A stretch of 64,000 bases of DNA, taken from NCBI GenBank assembly GCA_021813945.1, contig JAKAJD010000001.1, positions 270,742 through 334,741 of the forward strand. The letters are read 5' to 3'. Below are positions 4,244 to 30,234 of the stretch, one piece after another. The translations under genes were made by a program, and so were the position numbers. The notes below the pieces were generated by a model. That model saw nothing but the letters and a program-made list of their open reading frames with translations. It was not told the DNA's origin and searched no databases. How positions within the stretch are numbered: position 1 is the first letter of the stretch; every line of letters starts with the position of its first letter. This DNA comes from a bacterium. Lineage in GTDB: Bacteria; Patescibacteriota; Microgenomatia; Curtissbacterales; GWA2-41-24.

Positions 4244-4681
4244 ATGGCTGCAAAATCAGTAAACCAAATCGACACAACTTTAGAAGATTTTTTCAAGAAG
4301 ATGCCCCCTTTACCGCCCAACGCAGTTGACGCAATTTTCAAAATTACACCATGGTTAGCTTTAATCTTTGGTATTTTAGGAGTAATTGGAGCACTTTCCG
4401 CATTCGGAATTCTAACAGCGCTGTCTCCATTTGCCATGATGGCAGGAGCACACAACTGGGGTCTTGGCATCTTCGCAGCAGTTGGATGGCTTGTATCAAG
4501 CGTCCTTATGCTTATTGCATATCCCGGCCTTAAAGCCGGCAAAATGAACGGCTGGAACATGTTATTTTGGAGCGAAGCGGTAAACGTGGTTGCGTCGGTT
4601 ATAGGTATTTCCATATCAAGCATCATCGGTGCGGCAATTGGTTTTTACCTTATCTACCAAATCAAACCAAAGTACAAGTAA
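4244..4681 (+). CDS. Small integral membrane protein (unknown function)
   Basis: 145 aa, about 4 TM helices. Strong RBS 'AAGGGGGTGA' lies 6-8 nt upstream of the ATG. Confidence 0.55.
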   Translation: MAAKSVNQIDTTLEDFFKKMPPLPPNAVDAIFKITPWLALIFGILGVIGALSAFGILTALSPFAMMAGAHNWGLGIFAAVGWLVSSVLMLIAYPGLKAGKMNGWNMLFWSEAVNVVASVIGISISSIIGAAIGFYLIYQIKPKYK

Positions 4682-11214: not shown

Positions 11215-11646
11215 ATGTCAGAACGCGAACTAAGCACAGGTCAAGTAGATCAAGGTCCATATCGTGGACATTACCGCATGCAAACACGAATGCCCGATGG
11301 AAGCACTAGGCATTCCGTCTTGTTGGGCAATTCAGGGAATGGTACGCCAGAATCCGGTTCCGCCGAAGAGCTAAGACGCATTGTGGAAAGATACCGACTA
11401 ATTGGAATTGAAGTCCACATCGAAAACGAAGCTGACATGGCCCGAACCACCAGGCGAGATGGGGTGGGATTCAAAGAAAAACCTCCTGCAGAAGCAGGAA
11501 GATATAGTGTCTGGGCAGTAGAATCTCAAGCAACTTTGGCACATCTTGAATGGTTAAAAATTAATCGACATACGAGATCCCCTAGAATAGAACATCCAGC
11601 ACAAAATGTATTCAAAATGCAAAGACATTCGCGTTCACAGATCTAA
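11215..11646 (+). CDS. Hypothetical protein (GC-rich ORF, doubtful)
   Basis: 143-aa open frame in a markedly GC-rich segment. It starts 4 nt after the terminator T-tract and has no RBS. No motif recognised. Confidence 0.25.
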   Translation: MSERELSTGQVDQGPYRGHYRMQTRMPDGSTRHSVLLGNSGNGTPESGSAEELRRIVERYRLIGIEVHIENEADMARTTRRDGVGFKEKPPAEAGRYSVWAVESQATLAHLEWLKINRHTRSPRIEHPAQNVFKMQRHSRSQI

Positions 11647-12585
11647 AGCTGGATGAGAAACTTTTATCCCGTATTTGGCAAAGCCGTAATCTAAAAGCTC
11701 TTTCATTTCGCCTCTGCGGTTATCACTTCCAAGAATCACACCCAAAAGCTTAACCCCTTTGTTCTCTGCATATGTGGCCAGACACAAGCCGGCTTCCCAG
11801 GTAAATCCGGGTTTTATGCCTTTTACTCCGGGATACGTAGTCAATAAATTTGTTTCGTTATAAAGGTCAAAAGCTTTATGGGTATCTGTTGCATCAATTG
11901 CATAGTGTTCTGTTGAGACAACCTGCCTAAATTTTTCGAAATTTTGCATAGCATAATGGGAAAGCACCGCAAGGTCATAAGCTGTTGAATAGGGGTTCCT
12001 GCCGTCTTCGTCTAAACCGGAAGCATTGATAAAGCGGGTATCACTCATCCCCAGTAGGCGTGCCTTTTCATTCATTTTAGAAACAAAGGCATCTTCCGAC
12101 CCCGAAACTCCCTCCGCGATAGTCACTGCCGCGTCGTTTCCAGATGGAAGCATCAATCCATACAAAAGCTCATCTACTGCCAACTTTTCTCCTGCGCTAA
12201 GCCCCATACTGTCCTCGCCAACAGTTGCTGCTTTTTGGGAAACTTCAAAAACCGCATCATCTTTAGACGAAGAAAGCGCAACAAGAGCCGTCATAATCTT
12301 GGTTAGCGAAGCAATGGGCGCACGGCTCTGGATATTTTTAGCATAAACTATTTCACCAGTGTCAAAATTTACCAAAATCGCCGAATTTGCACTCAGATTT
12401 AATGGTGAATCGGCCCTAAAGTTAAACGTAGACTTTTTAGGAAACCAGTTGTTGGTTAACTGGGTAGAACTTGCGCCAAACACTTTAGGGATTGGAGAGG
12501 TGAAAGAAAAATCAGAACCTTTATAAAAGTAAAAAGCCGCTAATATACCGGCCAATAACAAAAAAAAGGCAAAAATCCTACCCAT
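11635..12585 (-). CDS. D-alanyl-D-alanine carboxypeptidase (peptidase S11, PBP5/DacA-like)
   Basis: SxxK 'ASLTKIMTAL' and SxN 'LPSGNDAAV' motifs. N-terminal signal anchor. 316 aa. Confidence 0.8.
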   Translation of the reverse strand: MGRIFAFFLLLAGILAAFYFYKGSDFSFTSPIPKVFGASSTQLTNNWFPKKSTFNFRADSPLNLSANSAILVNFDTGEIVYAKNIQSRAPIASLTKIMTALVALSSSKDDAVFEVSQKAATVGEDSMGLSAGEKLAVDELLYGLMLPSGNDAAVTIAEGVSGSEDAFVSKMNEKARLLGMSDTRFINASGLDEDGRNPYSTAYDLAVLSHYAMQNFEKFRQVVSTEHYAIDATDTHKAFDLYNETNLLTTYPGVKGIKPGFTWEAGLCLATYAENKGVKLLGVILGSDNRRGEMKELLDYGFAKYGIKVSHPALDL

Positions 12586-12599
12586 AACTCTATTTTACT

Positions 12600-13841
12600 T
12601 TAGGCGTTGGGGTTTATCAAAAAGCCTTTCATGTCTTCTCTGCCAATGATCACCTTATACATCATATGTGATCGTTCCGTCACAGTCGCCACGGTTTTAA
12701 CCTTTTTTCCCGCGATCATATATTGTAGGTTGACAGCACTTCTTAGCTGCTCTCCATTTGCGGCCCGAATCAAAATTTTATGCGGCAAAATCGGCAGTTT
12801 CAAATCACGAACAATTGACCAGTCAATTGCCGTTCTTAAGGCACCCGAATCGACTTTGGCATCGTAAGTCTTGTTACCATATTCCCCCAAAATCGTAATT
12901 GGCTCAACCAAAGAAAGCATGGTTGGCGAAACTCCAACTTTTTCTAGGTTCTCCTCAGCAAAAAGCGATTGTGAAAGTTCAACTCCGCGGTCGATATTGG
13001 CAACATTGATGTTTTCTACCCGCTCGAGTCTGGACCTGAGCGAATCCAAATTTGCATTTTGAATTTCAAGGCCAGGCCGGGCATTTATTTCCAAAACCAA
13101 AGGACCCCGGTTTGCATCTAATACTATATCCACACCGCAATAACCTAAGCCTTCGATAACGTCTTGCGCCTTAGCTGCAAGCCTAAGCATGTTTGCCCAA
13201 TTTGGAAGTTTTATTCCACGCGTCTTAATTCCAGTTCCAGGTATCTTTTTAACCTCTTTTCCTTTCAAAACAGCATGCTTTGTGATACCAGTTCGAAGAT
13301 CAATCCCGACACCTATTGCACCTAAGTGCAAATTGGCGGTTCCCCGTGATTCAACAGTGGGAATTCGAAGCATAGCCATAACAGGAATTCTTCTAAGCAA
13401 AACGACACGTATATCAGCAAGCCCCACGGCCACGAATTTTTTGAAAAACTTGTCCTGTACAACTCTTTCTTCTAGATATGCCTTATCCGGCAAATCCTGT
13501 AACGAATAAACCCCCTCAAAAATGTCAAAGATATGCGATTCCAACTCGTCCTTCGTGTAAATTTCTCCCGATACTGTTGTTCCCATATCCTTTTTCCAAC
13601 TGCGAAAAACCAGTATCCCTTCACCGCCATAACCTCTTGCCGGCTTAACTACAAAACCTTCCTCCGGAAGCTTCCAATCGAATGATCTAATTGCCGAACG
13701 TGTGTTAAAGGCTTTTATAAGCCGTGTTGTTGCTATACCGTCTTTTATAAGAAGCCTTTTAGTTCTAAGTTTGTTGTCTGCCGCTTTTTTGGCAACGCTT
13801 GTGTTATAGCGCCGGACATATAAAAAATTGCGGGCATTCAT
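12600..13841 (-). CDS. RimK-like ATP-grasp amidoligase fused to C-terminal retropepsin-like ('ATP-dependent zinc protease'/DUF785) domain
   Basis: N-terminal 'MNARNFLYVRRYN...VVKPARGYGGEGILVF' is an ATP-grasp fold. C-terminal 'AKVDSGALRTAIDW' carries the aspartyl-protease D-S/T-G-A signature. The start was placed at the ATG 'MNARNF' with a GAGG RBS; the ORF track extends to 13895. Confidence 0.6.
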   Translation of the reverse strand: MNARNFLYVRRYNTSVAKKAADNKLRTKRLLIKDGIATTRLIKAFNTRSAIRSFDWKLPEEGFVVKPARGYGGEGILVFRSWKKDMGTTVSGEIYTKDELESHIFDIFEGVYSLQDLPDKAYLEERVVQDKFFKKFVAVGLADIRVVLLRRIPVMAMLRIPTVESRGTANLHLGAIGVGIDLRTGITKHAVLKGKEVKKIPGTGIKTRGIKLPNWANMLRLAAKAQDVIEGLGYCGVDIVLDANRGPLVLEINARPGLEIQNANLDSLRSRLERVENINVANIDRGVELSQSLFAEENLEKVGVSPTMLSLVEPITILGEYGNKTYDAKVDSGALRTAIDWSIVRDLKLPILPHKILIRAANGEQLRSAVNLQYMIAGKKVKTVATVTERSHMMYKVIIGREDMKGFLINPNA

Positions 13842-13854
13842 GCCCAAGGCGCCT

Positions 13855-14784
13855 CTACTTACTGCCATTTTTCCTAACCTGAGAAAAACGAACAAATTCC
13901 GTCAGTCTCAATCCGAAATATCTTCCTATAAGAAGGTTTACAGGAATAAGAAGAAGGATAAATTCCGGATAGAGAAGTACGCCATGGCTTAGCTTTGTTG
14001 ACGTCAAAATCAAAAAGCCGGTAATACCCAAAATCAAAGTTACAGATGTAATAAAAACGGTCTCTCTTAAGCTGCGCGCAAGTTGAAGCGACATTATCCG
14101 CTCGCCTAAAAGCACCAAAATCAAAATCGGAAAAATTGAAATCTGCTTTACAACCAAAATTCCGGAGGCCGCAGAAACAGTCAAAGTCAAAAAGACAAAG
14201 ATTGCAACAATAAGAACAGAAAGAGCTTTCTTGGGAACCTGCATAATTCTAACGCTTTTTAAAATAATGCGGCCTATTACGGAAGCTAAAATAATAGAAA
14301 ACAATAAAATTCCACCGGCAGTAAGCCCTGTTGAAACCAACGTCACCGAAAGCGCAATGGGAACTATCATATCCAAACTTGGCAAACCGATGAGATGCCT
14401 GAAGAAGGCCACAATCGTTGCCAAAACTGGCAGCAGAAGAATCAGCATCACGGTATTGGCGGGAATGCCAACTTGCACTGCGTATTGAACCGTGAAGGCA
14501 ATAAAGTTGAAAGGGGAAAGCCGCGAAATAGGCCTTTTTTCAAAAAGTTTTGCAAAATCTTCCGAAGATTCCTGTGGGTTTGTAATATCCATCGGTTTTA
14601 TCTGGTCAACAGGTAGCCCAAAAGCACTGGCGGATGCTTCAGGCGTTGGTTGATTCGAGACAGTAAGTCCCGAAGGGCTCGGGCTAGAACTCACAACTGC
14701 TGTGCTCAATGCGTACGCAGGTCTCAAGGCAAGGTAAAAAAGAACCGTTACCGCAAAAAAAGCAACAATTTTTTTCAATCTCAT
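13855..14784 (-). CDS. 7-TM membrane protein partner of the ATP-grasp/retropepsin protein
   Basis: Signal peptide 'MRLKKIVAFFAVTVLFYLALRPAYA', a Ser/Pro-rich linker, then about 7 TM helices. It is immediately upstream of the ATP-grasp gene on the same strand. The ORF track start at 14862 uses TTG. Confidence 0.5.
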   Translation of the reverse strand: MRLKKIVAFFAVTVLFYLALRPAYALSTAVVSSSPSPSGLTVSNQPTPEASASAFGLPVDQIKPMDITNPQESSEDFAKLFEKRPISRLSPFNFIAFTVQYAVQVGIPANTVMLILLLPVLATIVAFFRHLIGLPSLDMIVPIALSVTLVSTGLTAGGILLFSIILASVIGRIILKSVRIMQVPKKALSVLIVAIFVFLTLTVSAASGILVVKQISIFPILILVLLGERIMSLQLARSLRETVFITSVTLILGITGFLILTSTKLSHGVLLYPEFILLLIPVNLLIGRYFGLRLTEFVRFSQVRKNGSK

Positions 14785-14809
14785 TTGCCAAAGTATATCA
14801 AAAAACAGT

Positions 14810-15898
14810 CTAAATCTCCTCAGTCCTGCGGTAAAGGATTTTTGAATGGGAAAAAGAAGCAATTGTCAAGGAAATCTTAGCAAGATAATCTGAAACAGCC
14901 AAAACCAAAACAAAAAGCACAAAAGTCCAGACAAGCGAAAGCGGATGTATATACGTTGAAAAAACCCTCAGAACCAAAGTGTGTGCCAGATATGTTACAT
15001 ACGATCTTTGCCCCACCCTTACCAGGCCGTCATGGATTCTTTTTGGAAGATGCCTAAAGTAATCAAGGCCAGACATGAACGTTAAGAGTGAAAGTCCCGC
15101 ATAAGACAAAACAACAAGTCTCGTTGATCTTGTAGCTACAGTTAAATTAGAAAGTACACTAGCTAATCTGAACGTGTTTTGGGCTTCCAAAATTAACCCT
15201 AAAACAGCCAAAGAAAATATTACCCAAAAATATTTTTTTAAATTCGCAATTACTTTAGTTTCCACCGCCAAATAAATACCCAAAACAAAATAGAAAATCC
15301 AAGTGCCAAAAAATAAATATTGCTGTTGGTCATTCAAAAAAATCGGCAATTTTATGTTTCCTTGCGAGAACTGGGATAAAACATAATAAAATGCCGTCTG
15401 CCACAAGATAATCAAAATTAGAGTTACATTAGCCTGTTTTTTGATAAAAAACATTAAAAAGGGAAAGATCAAATATAGCGAAAATATCATCGGCACAAAG
15501 TACAAGTGGTAATCAGCTTTTCCTAAAAAGATAACTTTCCACAGTGGAAAATAAGGTGCCGATTGGCCGAAAACGCTGAGCCTTATGTAAAAATAAACAG
15601 CGGCCGACCAAAAAAAATACCACGGTAAAAGGCGAAGCAGCCTTTTTTTAAAAAACTCGAAGGCGGAAATCGGCCTGTTTTTATACCTCAAAGTCAGCGT
15701 ATATCCCGAAAGAAAAACAAAAAGGGGAACAGAGAAGCGGCTAAACTGGTCTAAAACAATATATATCTTAAAAAGTAGAGAGCTCCAAGGTAAATTGTAT
15801 AAAGCGCCGCTTATAGTGTGGATTAAAACAACCGCAATTATTGCAAAGGCCCTTAAAATATCAAGGCCGGATATTCTTTCACTTTCCGGCTTTTGCAT
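14810..15898 (-). CDS. Acyltransferase family 3 (OafA/OatA-like membrane O-acyltransferase)
   Basis: 362 aa, 10-11 TM helices. N-terminal 'LDILRAFAIIAVVLIHT' is typical of Acyl_transf_3. Confidence 0.7.
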   Translation of the reverse strand: MQKPESERISGLDILRAFAIIAVVLIHTISGALYNLPWSSLLFKIYIVLDQFSRFSVPLFVFLSGYTLTLRYKNRPISAFEFFKKRLLRLLPWYFFWSAAVYFYIRLSVFGQSAPYFPLWKVIFLGKADYHLYFVPMIFSLYLIFPFLMFFIKKQANVTLILIILWQTAFYYVLSQFSQGNIKLPIFLNDQQQYLFFGTWIFYFVLGIYLAVETKVIANLKKYFWVIFSLAVLGLILEAQNTFRLASVLSNLTVATRSTRLVVLSYAGLSLLTFMSGLDYFRHLPKRIHDGLVRVGQRSYVTYLAHTLVLRVFSTYIHPLSLVWTFVLFVLVLAVSDYLAKISLTIASFSHSKILYRRTEEI

Positions 15899-17460: not shown

Positions 17461-18111
17461 ATGATAACAGTCCCGCAAGCAGTCGAAAAAATTATCAACC
17501 GCTCGAGATATCTCTCGGAAGCTCTCTCAAAAGACCTCATAAACACCACTTCTCTTGCTCGCTACATTAAAGTGGAAGTTGAAGAACTAACTTTTAAATC
17601 CGTGACTATTGGATCTGTCGCAATCGCCATAAAAAGACTGCAAAAAACCTACAAAAAAGGCTACAAAAAGATAACCGTATTCGCGGAAGCTCCGGATATG
17701 ATAGTACGGTCTAATCTTACCCTGATCTACGTCAAAAACTCCGACAATCTTCTATCCGAACTTTCAAAAGTGGAAGCCGACAGCCAAACCTTCAAAAAGA
17801 AGGCCTTATTCACGTATGGCCGCGTAGAAACAGTAATTCTTACAAACAAAATCAACCTAGAAGGAATTAAGGCTATCTTAAAAGATGAGGAGCTATCACA
17901 ATGCTTTCCAAACGTCTCATCTATAACAATCCATCTTCCCAAAGAATCCGTCAAAAATTCGGGGATTTTTTACTTTTTCATAAAATCTCTGGCCTGGGAG
18001 GGGGTGAACATTCTGGACATGCTCTCGACAGAAACGGAGCTGACCTTAGTCTTTGAACCCCAAGACACCAACACCGCCTTCGCAATCCTGCGTTCTCTTT
18101 TTGAAGAATAA
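17461..18111 (+). CDS. Hypothetical protein, possible ACT-like regulatory domains
   Basis: 216 aa. Repeated beta-alpha-beta-beta-alpha-beta-like segments. No catalytic motif. Confidence 0.35.
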   Translation: MITVPQAVEKIINRSRYLSEALSKDLINTTSLARYIKVEVEELTFKSVTIGSVAIAIKRLQKTYKKGYKKITVFAEAPDMIVRSNLTLIYVKNSDNLLSELSKVEADSQTFKKKALFTYGRVETVILTNKINLEGIKAILKDEELSQCFPNVSSITIHLPKESVKNSGIFYFFIKSLAWEGVNILDMLSTETELTLVFEPQDTNTAFAILRSLFEE

Positions 18112-18125
18112 GCTAAAATAAACGC

Positions 18126-18935
18126 ATGCAACGAGTCTCAGTCACCACCCTAAATACATTTGGAGGGGTAATAAATCCGTCTGGCCTAAACAGCCGTTAT
18201 GCTGCAATAGCAAGGTATTTTATTAAATCAGAGGTAGATGTCATAAATTTTCAAGAAGTTTTCACTTACTACCATCTACACTTGCTTCTTAAATCACTAA
18301 AAAAACGCTATCCTTATCACGCATTCCAGAATTCATATTTAGGCCCAAAAGGAGGCCTGGTAACTTTCTCAAAACTTCCTTGTAAAGGAAGGTACATAAG
18401 TTATAAAAGGAATTTCATACCAACTACAATAAAATCCAGCATAGAGCTTTTAACCCAGCGCGGAGCACTCGTGACAAAAGTTAAGAATCTTAACTTTACA
18501 ATCTTAAACACTCACATGACAGCCGTTTTAAATGGTGACTGGTCCAGGAAAAGCAAGTACTATAACGAGCTTTCATCCGAAATAAAACAATTCCACAAGA
18601 TCGTAGAAAATGCACACAAAAATGGTAACGTGTTGCTAGCCTCAGGAGACTTCAATATTGCCAAAGCCAGCCAGTTGTACAAAGAACTAATAAGTTATCA
18701 CAGCCTAGTCTACCCCTTCAAAAACAGCGGCGTGCCCACAAAGCACTCCAGTTTTCCGCAAACCGCACTAAAAACCAACTGCGTCGATTATATATTCGTA
18801 TTCAGCAACGCCAAACTATACAGCATCGAAAAAAAGAAATACGTCTTTACGCGTAAAATGGCACTAGAGCACAACAAAACGGGCTACGTATCCGATCACA
18901 TAGGGCTTTACGTTCAAATAAAATTAACCGCATAA
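18126..18935 (+). CDS. Endonuclease/exonuclease/phosphatase (EEP) family protein
   Basis: 'VINFQEVF', 'GDFN' and 'SDHIGLYVQI' motifs. Confidence 0.6.
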   Translation: MQRVSVTTLNTFGGVINPSGLNSRYAAIARYFIKSEVDVINFQEVFTYYHLHLLLKSLKKRYPYHAFQNSYLGPKGGLVTFSKLPCKGRYISYKRNFIPTTIKSSIELLTQRGALVTKVKNLNFTILNTHMTAVLNGDWSRKSKYYNELSSEIKQFHKIVENAHKNGNVLLASGDFNIAKASQLYKELISYHSLVYPFKNSGVPTKHSSFPQTALKTNCVDYIFVFSNAKLYSIEKKKYVFTRKMALEHNKTGYVSDHIGLYVQIKLTA

Positions 18936-18937
18936 GC

Positions 18938-19729
18938 TTATGCCAGCTTCTTTGCTGATTCGTACAATTCATAATCCTTTTCATGTAAATCATAAAAACG
19001 ACTTATAAATGCAGGTCCATAACCTTGAATTGGTTCTCTTGCATCCGGTGTTCTGTTCAATCGTTTAGCCTTAAATCCTCGGTCACAACCTACAGGCATT
19101 AGACCCTCCCGCCGAATACACTCTATTAATTTATCAGCAAACACATCCAATTCGTCAGTGATACCTACAACAGCAAAATCACCAAGATTCTTTTTCCCCA
19201 AAGCTTGCGATTGATAATTCCTAAGTTCAGGCAATAAAGCATATTCCTCAAATGTTAAAGACGGCCGAAATGGTATTCTTACACGCCACTGGGTGACCCC
19301 TCTTGTTCTCCTCCAATGAGCGTACTGCGACCTCATTCTTTCAAGGGGGTCCCTGATCACAACGACCGAAACAGGGTCTGAAATATGCAAATCAAAACGG
19401 TCAGCAACGAAATGTCCGTGTACGGCCGAAAAATCATCTGGCATTTCAAAAACATGAATAGTCTTTGGCTTTAAAATATTAGTACTAAGCAATAAATATG
19501 CTCTATTTATAATAAACGCTAGTGGGGTATTTGCAATTTGCGCGCGCAACAAATCATGAACAGCACTAGTTCGCCGAGCCTTGAGATCAGCAGCCCTCGC
19601 TAAGGTATCGTCAATGGGGTTGTACACAAGAACCCTATCCTTGCCTAATGCAGATTCTAGAAGATCCTGAACAGAAGTTCCTGCGGTTTTTTCAATATGA
19701 ACACTTACTACTCGTCTTTCCAAACTCAT
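18938..19729 (-). CDS. Sulfotransferase family protein (PAPS-dependent)
   Basis: 'HIEKTAGTS' matches the 5'-PSB loop (HIPKTGGT-like). 'VVIRDPLERMRSQYAH' matches the 3'-PB motif (RDP..R..S.Y). Composition is GC-rich. Confidence 0.6.
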   Translation of the reverse strand: MSLERRVVSVHIEKTAGTSVQDLLESALGKDRVLVYNPIDDTLARAADLKARRTSAVHDLLRAQIANTPLAFIINRAYLLLSTNILKPKTIHVFEMPDDFSAVHGHFVADRFDLHISDPVSVVVIRDPLERMRSQYAHWRRTRGVTQWRVRIPFRPSLTFEEYALLPELRNYQSQALGKKNLGDFAVVGITDELDVFADKLIECIRREGLMPVGCDRGFKAKRLNRTPDAREPIQGYGPAFISRFYDLHEKDYELYESAKKLA

Positions 19730-19765
19730 TCTAATAACCTATAATACCCGATATTATATCTTAAC

Positions 19766-20443
19766 ATGCTGGAAAAACAAAACTATGAGCCAATTCACCT
19801 GCCCAAAAGAACAGTTAGGGAATGGCTGAAGAATAAACTTATAGTCGATGCTGAAAACGTCATGCGGCTTATATATCCTTTAGTCAGATATATTCATGAG
19901 AAAAGGCCCGATTACCTACTCGCCCTGGATTCCGGTGCCAGAATCACTAGCCTCGCTATACTTGCCCTTTATAGTGAATTATATGGAGAACTGCCAACGA
20001 AAGATCACGCAATTCATTTTAAAAAAGTTTCCCATAAGTTCACGCCTGCTCTCATAAAACACCAGCTTGAAGGCTGTGTTCAACAAGCGTTATCCGCAAA
20101 TGAATCCCCTTTGCTTTTTGTCATCGACGACTGCACAAACACCGGAATAACAGCAAGTAGGGTAAGAAGAGCTGTTTCAGAACTATCCAACGGAAAGGTA
20201 CGCCTTCGCTTTGGCGTGATGCGTGAATTTCTCGCAGGCATTACAGACGTAAAGGGAGACACTTTTAGCCTAGCAAGGCCTGCTTGGCGCAATCAACCGG
20301 AGTTAATTGGGGTCTACTATTCTGACAATACGATTCCTCATGTACTCAGTACCCAGGAGGCTATCAGTTTGAGAGAACAAATTCGCTCAAGCGCAAAGCA
20401 GTTCGCAGCAAAAATTAAAGGTGGAGTAAAAAATGAGTGTTGA
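19766..20443 (+). CDS. Phosphoribosyltransferase (PRTase type I)-like domain protein
   Basis: 'LLFVIDDCTNTGITASR' matches the PRPP-binding motif (hhhhDDhhtTGgT). Confidence 0.45.
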   Translation: MLEKQNYEPIHLPKRTVREWLKNKLIVDAENVMRLIYPLVRYIHEKRPDYLLALDSGARITSLAILALYSELYGELPTKDHAIHFKKVSHKFTPALIKHQLEGCVQQALSANESPLLFVIDDCTNTGITASRVRRAVSELSNGKVRLRFGVMREFLAGITDVKGDTFSLARPAWRNQPELIGVYYSDNTIPHVLSTQEAISLREQIRSSAKQFAAKIKGGVKNEC

Positions 20444-22547
20444 ATCAACTAGCTATATGCAAGACTTGAGGCCTAACTGCCCCGACGCCTTAAACATACA
20501 CGATGAACATTTAATTGATGCCCAACTTCGCAATATGCAAATCCTTATTGAAACCACCTCGGAAAGAAAAATTGATAGCCTAATTGATGACGTAATGGGT
20601 CTAAAACAGGCATATGATAGCAGGTTAACTTTAGCAATTATCAACAGAAGACTTGATGAGCAATCTATATCATTATTAAAAAAAGCAAGCGATACCATAT
20701 CAAACGGCAGCAACGTCATAATCAAAAGTTTTGAGCGTGCCGAGCCTGTCACCGAAGAAAAAAATGATGCCTTAATACAAACAGCACAAAGGCTAATCTA
20801 TCTGCATTCCACAGATGGAACAGACGCTCTTAAAAAGAATTGCTTAGTGGACTCGGAAGAAACAGTAATTTTCGCCGTCCCATCAAAGCAAAGTGCCATT
20901 CTTCATGAAGCACTCGCTCTTATGCCATCCACAGAAAACGTTGTTGGTTTTAAAATCACAAAAACAGATGCAAGCATTGAGGTCAGTTTATTTTTAAAAA
21001 AAGACGAAAGGGGAGTAAGTAGCGTAAGCATTACGCTAGACGAAAAGACCCAGAAAATAGCAGCTGAACACAAAAAGGGTAAAAAAATCTTGATCGCAAT
21101 CGAAGGTGACATCGCTGGTCACTCAATCAGGGCACTGGAAACCGCAAGAGGACTAAGGGCACTTGGGTATGAACCTGACATTTTTGGCAGCGGCTATTAT
21201 GCATGGCAATACAAAGAAGAAGGTTTCAATTGTCTACCTCCTTTTAACACCAGTGAAACATTAGAAAGAGAGCGGATTATTGCTAAAGCAAGGGGAGAAG
21301 GAGAAGGAGTGTTTTTCTGGAATTTTAAAGAGGTAAAATCACGTGTAGAGTCGGCAAAAAGTGCTCTTAGACCATATATCCAATCGGGCGTAGATTTGCT
21401 TATTTCTGATATGAACCCAATTGTTGATATTGCTATAAGTCAACTCCAGTCAGAAACAGGGGTATACTTCCCCAGAATGACAGAAACACACGACATACGA
21501 CTGTCCCCATACAGGACGCTCAGAACAATTAAGGTTAGAGGAATTCCGGTAGGCGAAATAGCATATAGAGTAAATTGCCTGCCTGTTATCGCCGCTCTCG
21601 ATAAAAATGGACGACGCCACAAGATCACACATTTCATGCTTAATAATGTCGCAGATACGTTTATGGGACTACCACTCTTTATGTACGATCGCAAAAGGAG
21701 CGGCTCAAAACTGCGAATAAAATTTACCGATTACATTTATGGTGAAGATGGAACAATGCTATTTAGCCTCAAACAAGAATGTCCAGAACCGAATATTTAT
21801 CCTGTTGGCCTACAAGCAGATAAAGGGGCACACAATGGTAGCGGACATCCTGAATTCCCCAAGGGGAAAGCAGCCATATTAAATGCTCAGGGCAGCACAC
21901 ACAACAGAGCAGCCTGGAATATCACAGCATCAGCTCTTTTAGAAATTCCAGATAGTTTCTCAATTCACGCAACGGGAATAAAGGAAGACAAAACAGAAGC
22001 GATAAACGGAAACGCAAAAACAGGTACAGCAGGGCTAAAAGGCTATAAAGTTGGTTATGCCGATAATTACTATTTGGCTCAAGCAGCAGATGTAGTAATA
22101 AACCACGGAGGGTTTGGAACAATTTCTCAATGGTTGCTTGCTGCAACAAAAAAAATAAGAGGAGAACGGCGGGAATTGGATAACCTGGTTTCTACAAATA
22201 CGCCAACGCAAGTTGGCCGCTACTTAAGAAGTTGCCACGGAATATCACGATCGCTTTCTGTGTGCAATACTTTTGAACAAGAAAATAACGCAAGATCAAT
22301 AAACGAAGCAGGTGGCGAAAACGTATGCACGGTAATAACAGCAGACGATCTTCTAAAACAGCCAGACCCAAAAAGCCTAATTCAACAACTAATAAAACGG
22401 TTACTGTATGCGCCCATAGACAATAGTGAACGGGCGTTTTGGCTTAACCTGGTCAACTATGAATCGTCCATGAATGCCCCAGCCCATATAGCCCTAATCC
22501 TTGAAAGAATTATCGTCACCCAACAAAAAGAACATGAAAGAAGCTGA
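20433..22547 (+). CDS. GT1-family (MGT/UDP-glycosyltransferase-like) glycosyltransferase with about 210-aa unknown N-terminal extension
   Basis: N-lobe 'KKILIAIEGDIAGHSIRALETARGLRALGYEPDIF'. C-lobe signature 'ADVVINHGGFGTISQ' plus 'EQENNARSINEAGGE' (HGG.GT ... Q..NA). 704 aa. Confidence 0.6.
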   Translation: MSVESTSYMQDLRPNCPDALNIHDEHLIDAQLRNMQILIETTSERKIDSLIDDVMGLKQAYDSRLTLAIINRRLDEQSISLLKKASDTISNGSNVIIKSFERAEPVTEEKNDALIQTAQRLIYLHSTDGTDALKKNCLVDSEETVIFAVPSKQSAILHEALALMPSTENVVGFKITKTDASIEVSLFLKKDERGVSSVSITLDEKTQKIAAEHKKGKKILIAIEGDIAGHSIRALETARGLRALGYEPDIFGSGYYAWQYKEEGFNCLPPFNTSETLERERIIAKARGEGEGVFFWNFKEVKSRVESAKSALRPYIQSGVDLLISDMNPIVDIAISQLQSETGVYFPRMTETHDIRLSPYRTLRTIKVRGIPVGEIAYRVNCLPVIAALDKNGRRHKITHFMLNNVADTFMGLPLFMYDRKRSGSKLRIKFTDYIYGEDGTMLFSLKQECPEPNIYPVGLQADKGAHNGSGHPEFPKGKAAILNAQGSTHNRAAWNITASALLEIPDSFSIHATGIKEDKTEAINGNAKTGTAGLKGYKVGYADNYYLAQAADVVINHGGFGTISQWLLAATKKIRGERRELDNLVSTNTPTQVGRYLRSCHGISRSLSVCNTFEQENNARSINEAGGENVCTVITADDLLKQPDPKSLIQQLIKRLLYAPIDNSERAFWLNLVNYESSMNAPAHIALILERIIVTQQKEHERS

Positions 22548-23331
22548 ACAAAATATTGGGAATCAACCTTATAGCGAAATTAGCCAACAAGCAAAGATAA
22601 AAGCTGCTTTGCTTGAAGTACCATCAGGAGCAACAACCCTGTGCAAGCGACTTTTACAAAATGACCGATTAACCGTCGATGAAGCGCAATCAGTATTATT
22701 TGAAGCTACTGAAGCATTAAGCGGATCAGCACCTTTCGGTTTGAAGTCATCACCGAAAATAACAGGCCACCTCGGGCAAGGGTTTGAATCCACAGGATTC
22801 ATCTTCGATACCAAAGAGGGTAAATGGGTAATAAAAATCGGCCTGCCAAAAAATTGCGTGTCAGGAGTGTATTCACCCTCAACCAATAAATACGCAAGTA
22901 CAATGGTGTGGAACTACAGGGCACTTATGGATACTTTCCAAGAAAAACTGCCGCACGTCACACCCTCACCATATTTCGTGATTCCGCCAAGCGGGCTAAG
23001 CCGACACACAACAGTTCAAATACAACCATATATCCAGCCGACAACAAACGCAGACAACCTCACAAATAGCCAAAGGGAAGACCTGATAGCTGAAAGGACA
23101 ACATTTTACTATCTGTCACGTTCAATGCTTAAACACAAAAGAGTAATGCCAGACCTAGTTAAGAGAAAAAACCTCATCGTCGGTACCACAAGCGGACAGG
23201 CACACTACACCCTCGTTGACGTGGGCCTATTTCACCTGCAAGCACCAACCCCCGTGTTAAACATACTCGTCTTTTTTTCCCAAAGACTGTCCCTATCAAG
23301 AGACCTAAGGGCTTTAAAATCACGAAGGTGA
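22501..23331 (+). CDS. Small protein-kinase-like / APH-like fold protein
   Basis: Gly-rich loop 'GHLGQGFESTGF', beta3 Lys 'WVIKIG', catalytic loop 'PDLVKRKNLIV' (D..K..N) and 'LVDVGLF' (DFG-like). It overlaps the end of the GT1 gene. The true start is probably the internal ATG at about 22534. Confidence 0.45.
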   Translation: MKELSSPNKKNMKEAEQNIGNQPYSEISQQAKIKAALLEVPSGATTLCKRLLQNDRLTVDEAQSVLFEATEALSGSAPFGLKSSPKITGHLGQGFESTGFIFDTKEGKWVIKIGLPKNCVSGVYSPSTNKYASTMVWNYRALMDTFQEKLPHVTPSPYFVIPPSGLSRHTTVQIQPYIQPTTNADNLTNSQREDLIAERTTFYYLSRSMLKHKRVMPDLVKRKNLIVGTTSGQAHYTLVDVGLFHLQAPTPVLNILVFFSQRLSLSRDLRALKSRR

Positions 23332-23489
23332 CCTGCATTAACACCTAGTTCTATCAATGCGAGCAAAAGCCCCCCAACACCGCCTTTGCGATTTTGAGGT
23401 CCCCCTTTGAGGGTTAAAACACCCGCCGCGATAATTTCAAATTATTAATGAAGTTGTTATTTTCTATTGAGAAACATTATAATTTCCGA

Positions 23490-29928: not shown

Positions 29929-30234
29929 ATGGCAAAAAGATTATTTGTTGGTAGTCTCTCTTATAGTACTACACAATCCCAGCTTGAAGATTTATTTTCA
30001 CAAGTCGGGAAAATTGCGAGCCTTAATTTGATAATTGATAAATTCTCAGGCAGAAGCAAAGGGTTTGCTTTTGTGGAATTTGCAACAGACGGCGAAGCAG
30101 ATGAGGCTATCAAAAAATTTAACAATTTTGAACTGGATGGCAGAAAATTGGTAGTCAACGAAGCACGTCCTCAAGAGGACAGGCCAAATCGGCAAAACGG
30201 TAGGGGTAATTTCCAAAGATCCAAGAGTTGGTAG
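29929..30234 (+). CDS. RRM-type RNA-binding protein
   Basis: RNP-2 'LFVGSL' and RNP-1 'KGFAFVEF', with an RG/N-rich tail. Strong RBS 'AAGGAAAGGAGG'. Confidence 0.85.
   Translation: MAKRLFVGSLSYSTTQSQLEDLFSQVGKIASLNLIIDKFSGRSKGFAFVEFATDGEADEAIKKFNNFELDGRKLVVNEARPQEDRPNRQNGRGNFQRSKSW

Follow-up and report, generated by a model that had tools for sequence, protein, structure and literature searches.

In this study, we followed up a group of adjacent enzyme genes in a 64-kb stretch of bacterial DNA (contig JAKAJD010000001.1; the whole stretch is hereafter called the window), in which an earlier note, made from the letters alone, had described a GC-rich island of four genes with small-molecule tailoring or inactivation chemistries. 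Our analysis delimits a five-gene cassette, whose members we call EEP, ST, PRT, GT and KIN; PRT, a phosphoribosyltransferase (PRTase)-like protein, GT, a glycosyltransferase, and KIN, a kinase-like protein, form its core. The features of the locus, in the order in which they occur in the window, are as follows:

18068..18111, forward strand: direct-repeat copy 1, formed by the intact 3' end of the 216-aa gene that lies upstream (translation …NTAFAILRSLFEE, then stop); from repeat search and translation. Its end lies 14 nt before the EEP start.
18126..18935, forward strand: EEP, predicted EEP-family Mg-dependent phosphodiesterase/phosphatase, 269 aa; from Pfam, family profile, invariant residues and linkage.
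18938..19729, reverse strand: ST, predicted Sulfotransfer_2-like (HS2ST-type) sulfotransferase using 3'-phosphoadenosine 5'-phosphosulfate (PAPS), 263 aa, accessory; from Pfam and motifs.
19730..19765, no strand: divergent spacer between ST and PRT, 36 bp, with back-to-back TATAAT boxes; from the sequence.
19766..20443, forward strand: PRT, type-I phosphoribosyltransferase-like protein, 225 aa, core; from family profile and invariant loops.
20433..22547, forward strand: GT, whole open reading frame (ORF), 704 aa.
20433..21077, forward strand: N-terminal domain of GT, approximately aa 1-215.
21078..22547, forward strand: predicted GT-B fold, GT1-family domain of GT, approximately aa 216-704, core.
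22534..23331, forward strand: KIN, probable minimal protein-kinase-like-fold protein, 265 aa, core; alternative TTG start at 22501.
23374..23417, forward strand: direct-repeat copy 2, in which the 3' end of the 216-aa gene recurs in decayed form (…NTAFAILRSPFEG, then stop).

The four ORFs of the earlier note were recovered at its positions (ST at 18938-19729 on the reverse strand; PRT at 19766-20443, GT at 20433-22547 and KIN at 22501/22534-23331 on the forward strand), and the motifs HIEKTAGTS, RDPLERMRSQY, LFVIDDCTNTGIT, VIK and DVG that it had quoted are present. The glycine loop of KIN, which had been given as GxGxxG, actually reads GQGFES, that is, GxGxE[ST]. The start of GT overlaps the stop of PRT by 11 nt and the start of KIN overlaps the stop of GT by 14 nt, which suggests translational coupling. 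The latter overlap had already been noticed and stands, whereas the length of 276 aa then assigned to KIN does not: both the alignment of orthologues and the gene caller preferred the ATG at 22534 (265 aa) over the TTG at 22501 (276 aa). Downstream, 42 nt separate the KIN stop from repeat copy 2. Signal peptides and transmembrane segments were found in none of the five proteins, which are cytoplasmic.

We also measured the base composition of the locus. The block 18938-23331 has a GC content of 0.420, compared with 0.413 +/- 0.010 in windows of the same size across the 64 kb (74th percentile). The GC content of the cassette genes is 0.39-0.44 (0.414 +/- 0.029 for the genes of the window), their GC content at third codon positions is 0.31-0.43 (0.374 +/- 0.045) and their codon usage is host-like. 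All these values fall inside the distribution of the window, and a compositional island, which the earlier note had taken as a sign of acquisition, was ruled out. The limits of the proposed four-gene block had to be redrawn as well. EEP, previously regarded as a flanking gene, belongs to the conserved unit and is linked to it in eight loci; ST is an accessory gene, and the deep core consists of PRT, GT and KIN.

It should be noted that, under standard annotation, all but one of the five genes remain 'hypothetical' owing to the divergence of their families. As single sequences, ST, PRT, GT and KIN all scored below the curated cut-offs of Pfam and NCBIfam, and direct comparison of PRT, GT and KIN with the PDB was equally uninformative, so that the direct database check proposed for them gave nothing secure; their folds were assigned by family profiles and structure prediction, and on this basis the products are, as had been proposed, ST-like, type-I PRTase-like, N-terminally extended GT1 and, probably, protein-kinase-like-fold proteins, respectively.

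The assignment of PRT comes from its family. The window protein alone had no match in Pfam, and six of eight orthologues matched Pribosyltran. The family profile matched a purine PRTase in the PDB (1vdm, E 6.3e-5 over 129 positions), and all weaker matches were PRTases or a phosphoribosyl pyrophosphate (PRPP) synthetase. The pyrophosphate (PPi) loop DSGAR is intact and invariant, as is the PRPP loop DDxxxTGxT (D55/G57/R59 and D121, D122, G127 and T129 are the invariant residues), and the protein ends in a family-specific region of about 70 aa. With both loops in a Rossmann-like core, PRT is by its sequence a type-I PRTase-like protein, and transfer from PRPP is predicted.

GT gave only sub-threshold matches when compared directly with Pfam, and its profile found only insignificant FGFR2 matches in the PDB. 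An exhaustive profile search, however, reached true GT1 proteins (P0027, E 8.5e-8, and P0030) in which EryCIII-like_C, UDPGT and Glyco_tran_28_C score above threshold, and a profile-profile comparison (hhalign) of GT with GT1 gave a probability of 97.7% (E 1.5e-12). H230, in the loop GDIAGH230, is invariant and aligned to the catalytic His of GT1 enzymes; the donor motifs NHGGFGT…CNTFEQENN are conserved, and NHGGFGT aligns with the GT1 donor motif. The predicted fold is a two-Rossmann GT-B fold that could be superposed on GT1 enzymes, with YojK, YjiC, CalG and GtfA among the nearest structures; both biosynthetic and promiscuous enzymes are represented among the top structural matches. Thus, GT can be placed in the GT1 family of GT-B glycosyltransferases, with a nucleoside diphosphate (NDP)-sugar as the presumed donor. 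Orthology to the MGT/OleD type was not found, nor was any sequence match to a solved or Pfam GT1 subfamily. The N-terminal extension reported previously was borne out: about 215 aa precede the GT-B fold, confidently modelled as a bundle of helices and, after it, a small alpha/beta subdomain, for which no PDB match was found by profile and no relative was detectable. A further helical insertion of about 120 aa occupies aa ~355-480.

No sequence search identified KIN as a kinase. None of eight members matched a kinase family in Pfam (Pkinase, RIO1, Kdo/WaaP, APH and Choline_kinase) even at E<=10, and neither the single sequence nor the profile matched a kinase in the PDB; pentatricopeptide-repeat matches of the profile in the PDB were rejected as an artefact of repeat summation over a single 20-residue stretch. 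The eight members share the invariant residues G83/E85, K101, D207-x5-N213 and D229-x-G231, in canonical order and spacing. A conserved alphaC Glu is lacking, the C-lobe is truncated to about 35 residues after DxG, and a helical N-terminal extension of about 85 aa is conserved. The AlphaFold2 model is weak (pLDDT 55, pTM 0.56), and its top structural neighbours were Rio1/2/3, PRPK/Bud32 and HopBF1. Taken together, a minimal Rio-like protein-kinase fold is probable for KIN. The structural comparison with APH/Mph kinases suggested by the earlier note pointed elsewhere: the best matches are of the Rio/Bud32 type, the C-lobe substrate subdomain and APH Pfam signature of APH/Mph enzymes were not found in KIN, and the eight members have no APH/Mph match in Pfam.

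The window ST matched Pfam Sulfotransfer_2 (PF03567) with E 0.007 and 16.9 bits, against a curated cut-off of 22; four of five family members matched PF03567, the best with E 4e-5. Its invariant motifs HIEKTAGTS, HGH and RDPLERMxSQ align with the blocks HGH / RDPIERLVS / VGVTEELE of heparan-sulfate 2-O-sulfotransferase (HS2ST), a carbohydrate sulfotransferase, and with a 5'-phosphosulfate-binding (5'-PSB) loop, a 3'-phosphate-binding (3'-PB) motif and a catalytic His, ST is by these motifs a Sulfotransfer_2-type protein. The divergent spacer between ST and PRT is 33-37 bp long, and its core CCTATAATA-N3-5-ATTATAT was kept in five loci (window 19730-19765, L015 5180-5216, L005 7303-7335, L007 4137-4172 and L009 1758-1793; numbers preceded by L denote cassette loci). 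This core looks like two back-to-back -10 boxes with very short leaders. Because this predicted divergent promoter is conserved, ST appears to be tied to the operon.

EEP exceeded the Pfam cut-off for Exo_endo_phos (26.8 versus 24.5 bits). Its family profile matched SMPD2 (8j2f, E 1.5e-5) as well as beta-hemolysin and SMase C, and a sphingomyelin phosphodiesterase model of NCBIfam matched with E 5e-7. The catalytic set E44, D175-x-N177 and D257-H258 is invariant. On this evidence EEP belongs to the sphingomyelinase-like branch of the EEP superfamily, with neutral sphingomyelinase-type phosphodiesterases as its closest relatives. The protein is unusually basic for a cytoplasmic sphingomyelinase-like enzyme (37 K+R versus 14 D+E, net ~+23), which suggests an anionic substrate or binding surface.

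To date, the three core families are very narrow and co-restricted. The GT family comprises 9 clusters among 5.8 billion proteins (22 matches among 1.84 billion representatives), and the KIN and PRT families comprise 5 and 9 clusters, respectively; no relatives were found in viral contigs, phage records or plasmid records. We recovered about 13 distinct cassette loci, which are arranged as follows:

Window, L015, L005/L017, L007 and L009: EEP forward, ST reverse, then PRT, GT and KIN forward.
L022: ST, a HAD gene and a polyprenyl-synthase gene reverse, then EEP, a PRT–GT fusion and KIN forward.
L011: GT, KIN, EEP and PRT, all forward.
L019: PRT, GT (split) and KIN forward, then EEP reverse.
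L020: KIN, PRT and GT, all forward.
L012: AP_endonuc_2 gene reverse, then PLD, GT, GH78 rhamnosidase, PRT and KIN forward.
L014: PRT and GT forward, then KIN reverse.
L013: PRT and GT forward, then the contig end.
L010: AP_endonuc_2 gene reverse and, further along, a GT–KIN fusion; no PRT on the contig.

Of the 12 assessable loci, 11 keep PRT, GT and KIN together, with a permuted gene order in the distant ones, while EEP occurs in 8 and ST in 6 of the ~13 loci. The flanks are wholly different among the window, L015, L005/L017, L007 and L009; in L015, the module lies between nusG and rplK. Two natural fusions were found: the GT–KIN fusion (P0006; 43% identity, E 6e-66 over aa 729-974) and the PRT–GT fusion (P0015; hhalign probability 100%, E 9e-56). 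Conserved linkage was the point on which the earlier note had staked its proposal, and the outcome was strongly positive, with the fusions in addition. Because both junctions of the core, PRT–GT and GT–KIN, occur as natural fusions, the three proteins are likely to act together, and the core appears to work as one unit.

Several further observations concern individual loci. In L019 (6863-8955), GT is split into two overlapping ORFs, for which a frameshift, a pseudogene or faulty assembly may be responsible. Downstream of KIN, L007 (7782-8393) and L022 (7459-8100) carry an orphan of about 205 aa, with 52% identity between the two and no match in Pfam. L010 (3574-4242/4262-5095) and L012 (8848-9492/164-1048), which are the most distant loci, each combine an AP_endonuc_2 TIM barrel with an orphan of about 220 aa; the TIM barrel has a Pfam match, whereas the orphan has none. 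A 222-aa ORF of L010 was considered as a candidate PRT and rejected as it is not a PRT homologue.

The cassette of the window is bracketed exactly by the 44-nt direct repeat (18068-18111 / 23374-23417), whose copies are identical at 32 of 44 nt, compared with a maximum of 29 in 30 shuffles. In L005, a 53-nt repeat with 83% identity (blastn E 1e-10) lies at 4487-4539 and 11244-11296; it corresponds to the duplicated C-terminus of a downstream 139-aa ORF, a copy of which precedes a radical-SAM gene and the module. The bracketing genes of the window and L005 are unrelated. Bracketing repeats were sought at all loci and found in these two only, with none at three other testable loci; tblastx repeat matches at L015 look low-complexity and were set aside. 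No recombinase gene was found inside the brackets of either the window or L005. A decayed duplicate that brackets the cassette suggests an insertion scar, and we tentatively propose that recombination occasionally inserts the cassette at chromosomal sites among uncultured bacteria of a narrow, small-genome lineage. Thus, although the compositional argument for acquisition fails, acquisition itself may hold, because each genome has different flanks and, in two loci, the insert lies between copies of a gene end. Mobile or defence-type genes adjoin the module in four loci (L013 2805-5208, L007 8962-14951, L010 8916-9926 and L009 6615-7282), including a serine recombinase with Rep, an N6_N4 methyltransferase with a ResIII helicase, Fic and a PIN toxin. 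Such neighbours are consistent with placement in variable genome regions.

What does the cassette do? The proposal that we favour, at somewhat less than even confidence, is that its five cytoplasmic enzymes, with three physically coupled transferases as the obligatory core, form an assembly line that acts on one shared acceptor, which would be a glycoside, a nucleoside-like molecule or a glycolipid head-group. Sequential action on one substrate is suggested because the core enzymes are fused or translationally coupled. PRT would attach a ribose-5-phosphate unit from PRPP, GT would attach a sugar from an NDP-sugar and KIN would phosphorylate a hydroxyl with ATP. EEP would hydrolyse an intermediate at a phosphoester such as the ribosyl 5'-phosphate, a step that would parallel the two-step route of ribofuranose addition by phosphoribosylation and then dephosphorylation. 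ST would O-sulfate a sugar hydroxyl in one sub-lineage, the window included. The accessory genes of the distant loci comprise a GH78 rhamnosidase, the AP_endonuc_2 (sugar-isomerase-type) TIM barrel, PLD, a HAD phosphatase and a polyprenyl synthase, which act on carbohydrates or phosphoesters, and their carbohydrate leaning points to a glycoside or glycoconjugate substrate. Our data show the folds (that of KIN as probable), the intact catalytic motifs, the conserved linkage, the fusions and the geometry of the operon; we infer the donors, the sequence of steps, the kind of acceptor and the choice between a metabolite and an envelope product.

Several points weigh against this proposal. Each chemical step is deduced from a fold, and the kinase fold of KIN rests on a low-confidence model, with no sequence match to kinase families. 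EEP and ST are not universal, and the 10-kb contig of L010 carries the GT–KIN fusion but no PRT gene. PRT could alternatively be a PRPP- or nucleotide-binding regulatory subunit of the PyrR/PurR type. In addition, the nucleophiles to which type-I PRTases characteristically transfer ribose-5-phosphate are nitrogens. It would therefore be unusual for this fold to O-ribosylate a sugar, and the acceptor is at least as likely to be nucleobase-like. A glyco-nucleoside product formed via such an acceptor is equally plausible. A bolder version of the assembly-line proposal, which we consider possible but rather improbable, is that PRT, GT1 and the minikinase form an unrecognised three-enzyme complex that makes a new phosphorylated (in some lineages sulfated) ribosyl-glycoside or glyco-nucleoside, with a non-canonical acceptor for the PRTase, and that the cassette hops between chromosomal sites.

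The earlier note had seen in these genes the three classic antibiotic-inactivation chemistries, and an MGT/OleD-like GT1, an APH-like kinase and a sulfotransferase could indeed each inactivate an incoming antibiotic or xenobiotic. The closest GT1 structures (YojK, YjiC, CalG and GtfA) include promiscuous small-molecule and natural-product enzymes, some loci lie in variable regions beside toxin, restriction-modification or mobile genes, and the cassette appears inserted. We nevertheless regard this explanation as unlikely. KIN best matches Rio/Bud32-type kinases and has no APH/Mph match in Pfam among its eight members; the obligatory PRTase partner is without precedent as a resistance enzyme, and the fusion or coupling of three transferases argues for one substrate rather than for independent detoxifiers. 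Moreover, no plasmid or phage relatives were found, and genes for efflux or regulation are not conserved alongside the cassette. With a PRPP-type partner, a coupled core and, in distant loci, carbohydrate accessory genes, the cassette gives the inactivation idea no specific support.

On a par with it in our estimate, and hence also improbable, is the modification of a macromolecule, in which proteins, nucleic acids or wall polymers would be phosphorylated by KIN and glycosylated by GT, for instance during host interaction or defence, and EEP would be a nuclease or phosphodiesterase. The structural neighbours of KIN (Rio1/2/3, PRPK/Bud32 and HopBF1) are protein-acting or complex-embedded minimal kinases, the basic charge of EEP (net ~+23) would fit, and defence or toxin genes adjoin some loci. 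On the other hand, the nearest GT1 neighbours of GT act on small molecules and not on protein or DNA, the closest relatives of EEP are sphingomyelinase-type phosphodiesterases and not DNases, the five proteins are cytoplasmic and without secretion signals, and the accessory genes encode carbohydrate enzymes. A known anti-phage defence system was rejected, since PADLOC gave no significant match for the five proteins: four had no match, and PRT had only an insignificant one to CARF3 (E 0.035).

Slightly less probable still is the remodelling of lipid head-groups, in which a scavenged phospholipid or polyprenyl-phosphate would have its head group exchanged or decorated through cleavage by EEP or PLD, glycosylation by GT1 and decoration by KIN, PRT and ST. 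The relation of EEP to neutral sphingomyelinases, including the NCBIfam match to sphingomyelin phosphodiesterase (E 5e-7), the PLD-like genes in or near two loci and the polyprenyl synthase and HAD phosphatase inside the L022 cluster all suit this explanation. The evidence is circumstantial: the PLD, polyprenyl synthase and HAD genes are not conserved across loci, the cassette proteins have no membrane anchors, and the top GT1 matches are not lipid glycosyltransferases. Finally, chance adjacency of unrelated tailoring genes, which the sub-threshold single-sequence HMM (hidden Markov model) matches of ST, PRT, GT and KIN might have favoured, is effectively refuted by synteny and fusions, given linkage kept in ~13 loci with unrelated flanks, two independent fusion proteins, overlapping coding sequences and very narrow, co-restricted families.

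Returning to the assembly-line proposal, we compared the cassette with known systems. The statement of the earlier note that no characterised system has this architecture still holds: none with the PRT–GT–KIN combination was found, and the literature offers only the gPRT–PRP precedent. In that system, a sugar is phosphoribosylated from PRPP and the 5'-phosphate is subsequently cleaved off, and the Salmonella gPRT–PRP STM0726 acts in a physical complex with its Leloir glycosyltransferase partner STM0725 (PMC11127046, PMC11294581). The likeness of gPRT–PRP (prototype 7shg) to the cassette is one of analogy, namely cytoplasmic transfer from PRPP to a glycoside, a dedicated phosphatase and a glycosyltransferase partner. 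The two are not homologous, as 7shg is absent from the PDB matches of the PRT profile at E<=10; furthermore, the candidate phosphatase of the cassette is EEP and not a HAD protein (HAD occurs only in L022), and the cassette has an extra kinase and sulfotransferase. The same logic of phosphoribosylation followed by dephosphorylation is used by BtrL/BtrP in butirosin biosynthesis.

At the level of single enzymes, likeness and difference also go together. PRT shares with type-I PRTases (1vdm, XPRT/HGPRT) the PPi loop and the PRPP loop with its acidic pair and TGxT, in canonical spacing, but its C-terminal 'hood' of about 70 aa, with the invariant GVxRE…W…IGxxY, is unique, and PRT is never solo, always being linked to or fused with GT. 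GT shares the G-x-x-G-H loop and HGGxGT…[D/E]Q-x-x-N with GT1 enzymes (CalG1, GtfA, YojK/YjiC, SpnG, EryCIII and OleD/MGT), whereas its identity to them is 12-15%, below every Pfam GT threshold; its ~215-aa N-domain and ~120-aa helical insertion are private, and it is obligatorily coupled or fused to PRTase-like and kinase-like proteins. With Rio1/Rio2, Bud32/PRPK and HopBF1, KIN has in common a small core without an activation segment and the invariant beta3 Lys, D…N and DxG; its nucleotide loop GxG[F/K]E[A/S] resembles the Rio loop. It differs from these minimal kinases in lacking a sequence match and an alphaC Glu, in ending ~35 residues past DxG, in its ~85-aa N-terminal helical extension and in the GT fusion of one relative. 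Bacterial sugar kinases such as KdkA/WaaP are related to the minimal atypical kinases. ST shares the 5'-PSB-like loop KTAGTS, HGH, the 3'-PB motif RDPxERxxS and VGVTxELD with HS2ST-type enzymes, but it is a soluble, cytoplasmic, bacterial protein, and the window protein scores below the Pfam cut-off.

Elsewhere in the window, some features unrelated to the cassette were observed. At 11635-14862, a Peptidase_S11, ATPgrasp_ST and 7TM_transglut trio is followed by Acyl_transf_3, which looks like a peptide-modification or envelope cluster. A small gene at ~29929-30234 encodes an RRM_1 protein, uncommon in bacteria. The 64 kb contain 14 scattered tRNA genes and no rRNA, a high density that fits a very small genome, and also carry MurT, PMT_2, GH5 and aminoacyl-tRNA synthetase genes and many orphans. 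This gene content suggests a small-genome monoderm, maybe CPR (candidate phyla radiation)-like, bacterium.

In general, the superfamilies of the enzymes are known, and it is the combination of PRT, GT and KIN that appears to be undescribed. Our data give names to five orphan families, place EEP with them and, through the two fusions, predict a multi-enzyme complex. If PRT ribosylates a glycoside or an unusual base, the chemistry of type-I PRTases would be extended and the cassette would represent a third, non-homologous route of PRPP-dependent ribosylation. Ultra-small uncultured bacteria are generally regarded as nearly devoid of specialised metabolism; if the proposal is true, the cassette would be a rare example of a dedicated tailoring or specialised pathway in a small-genome uncultured bacterium.

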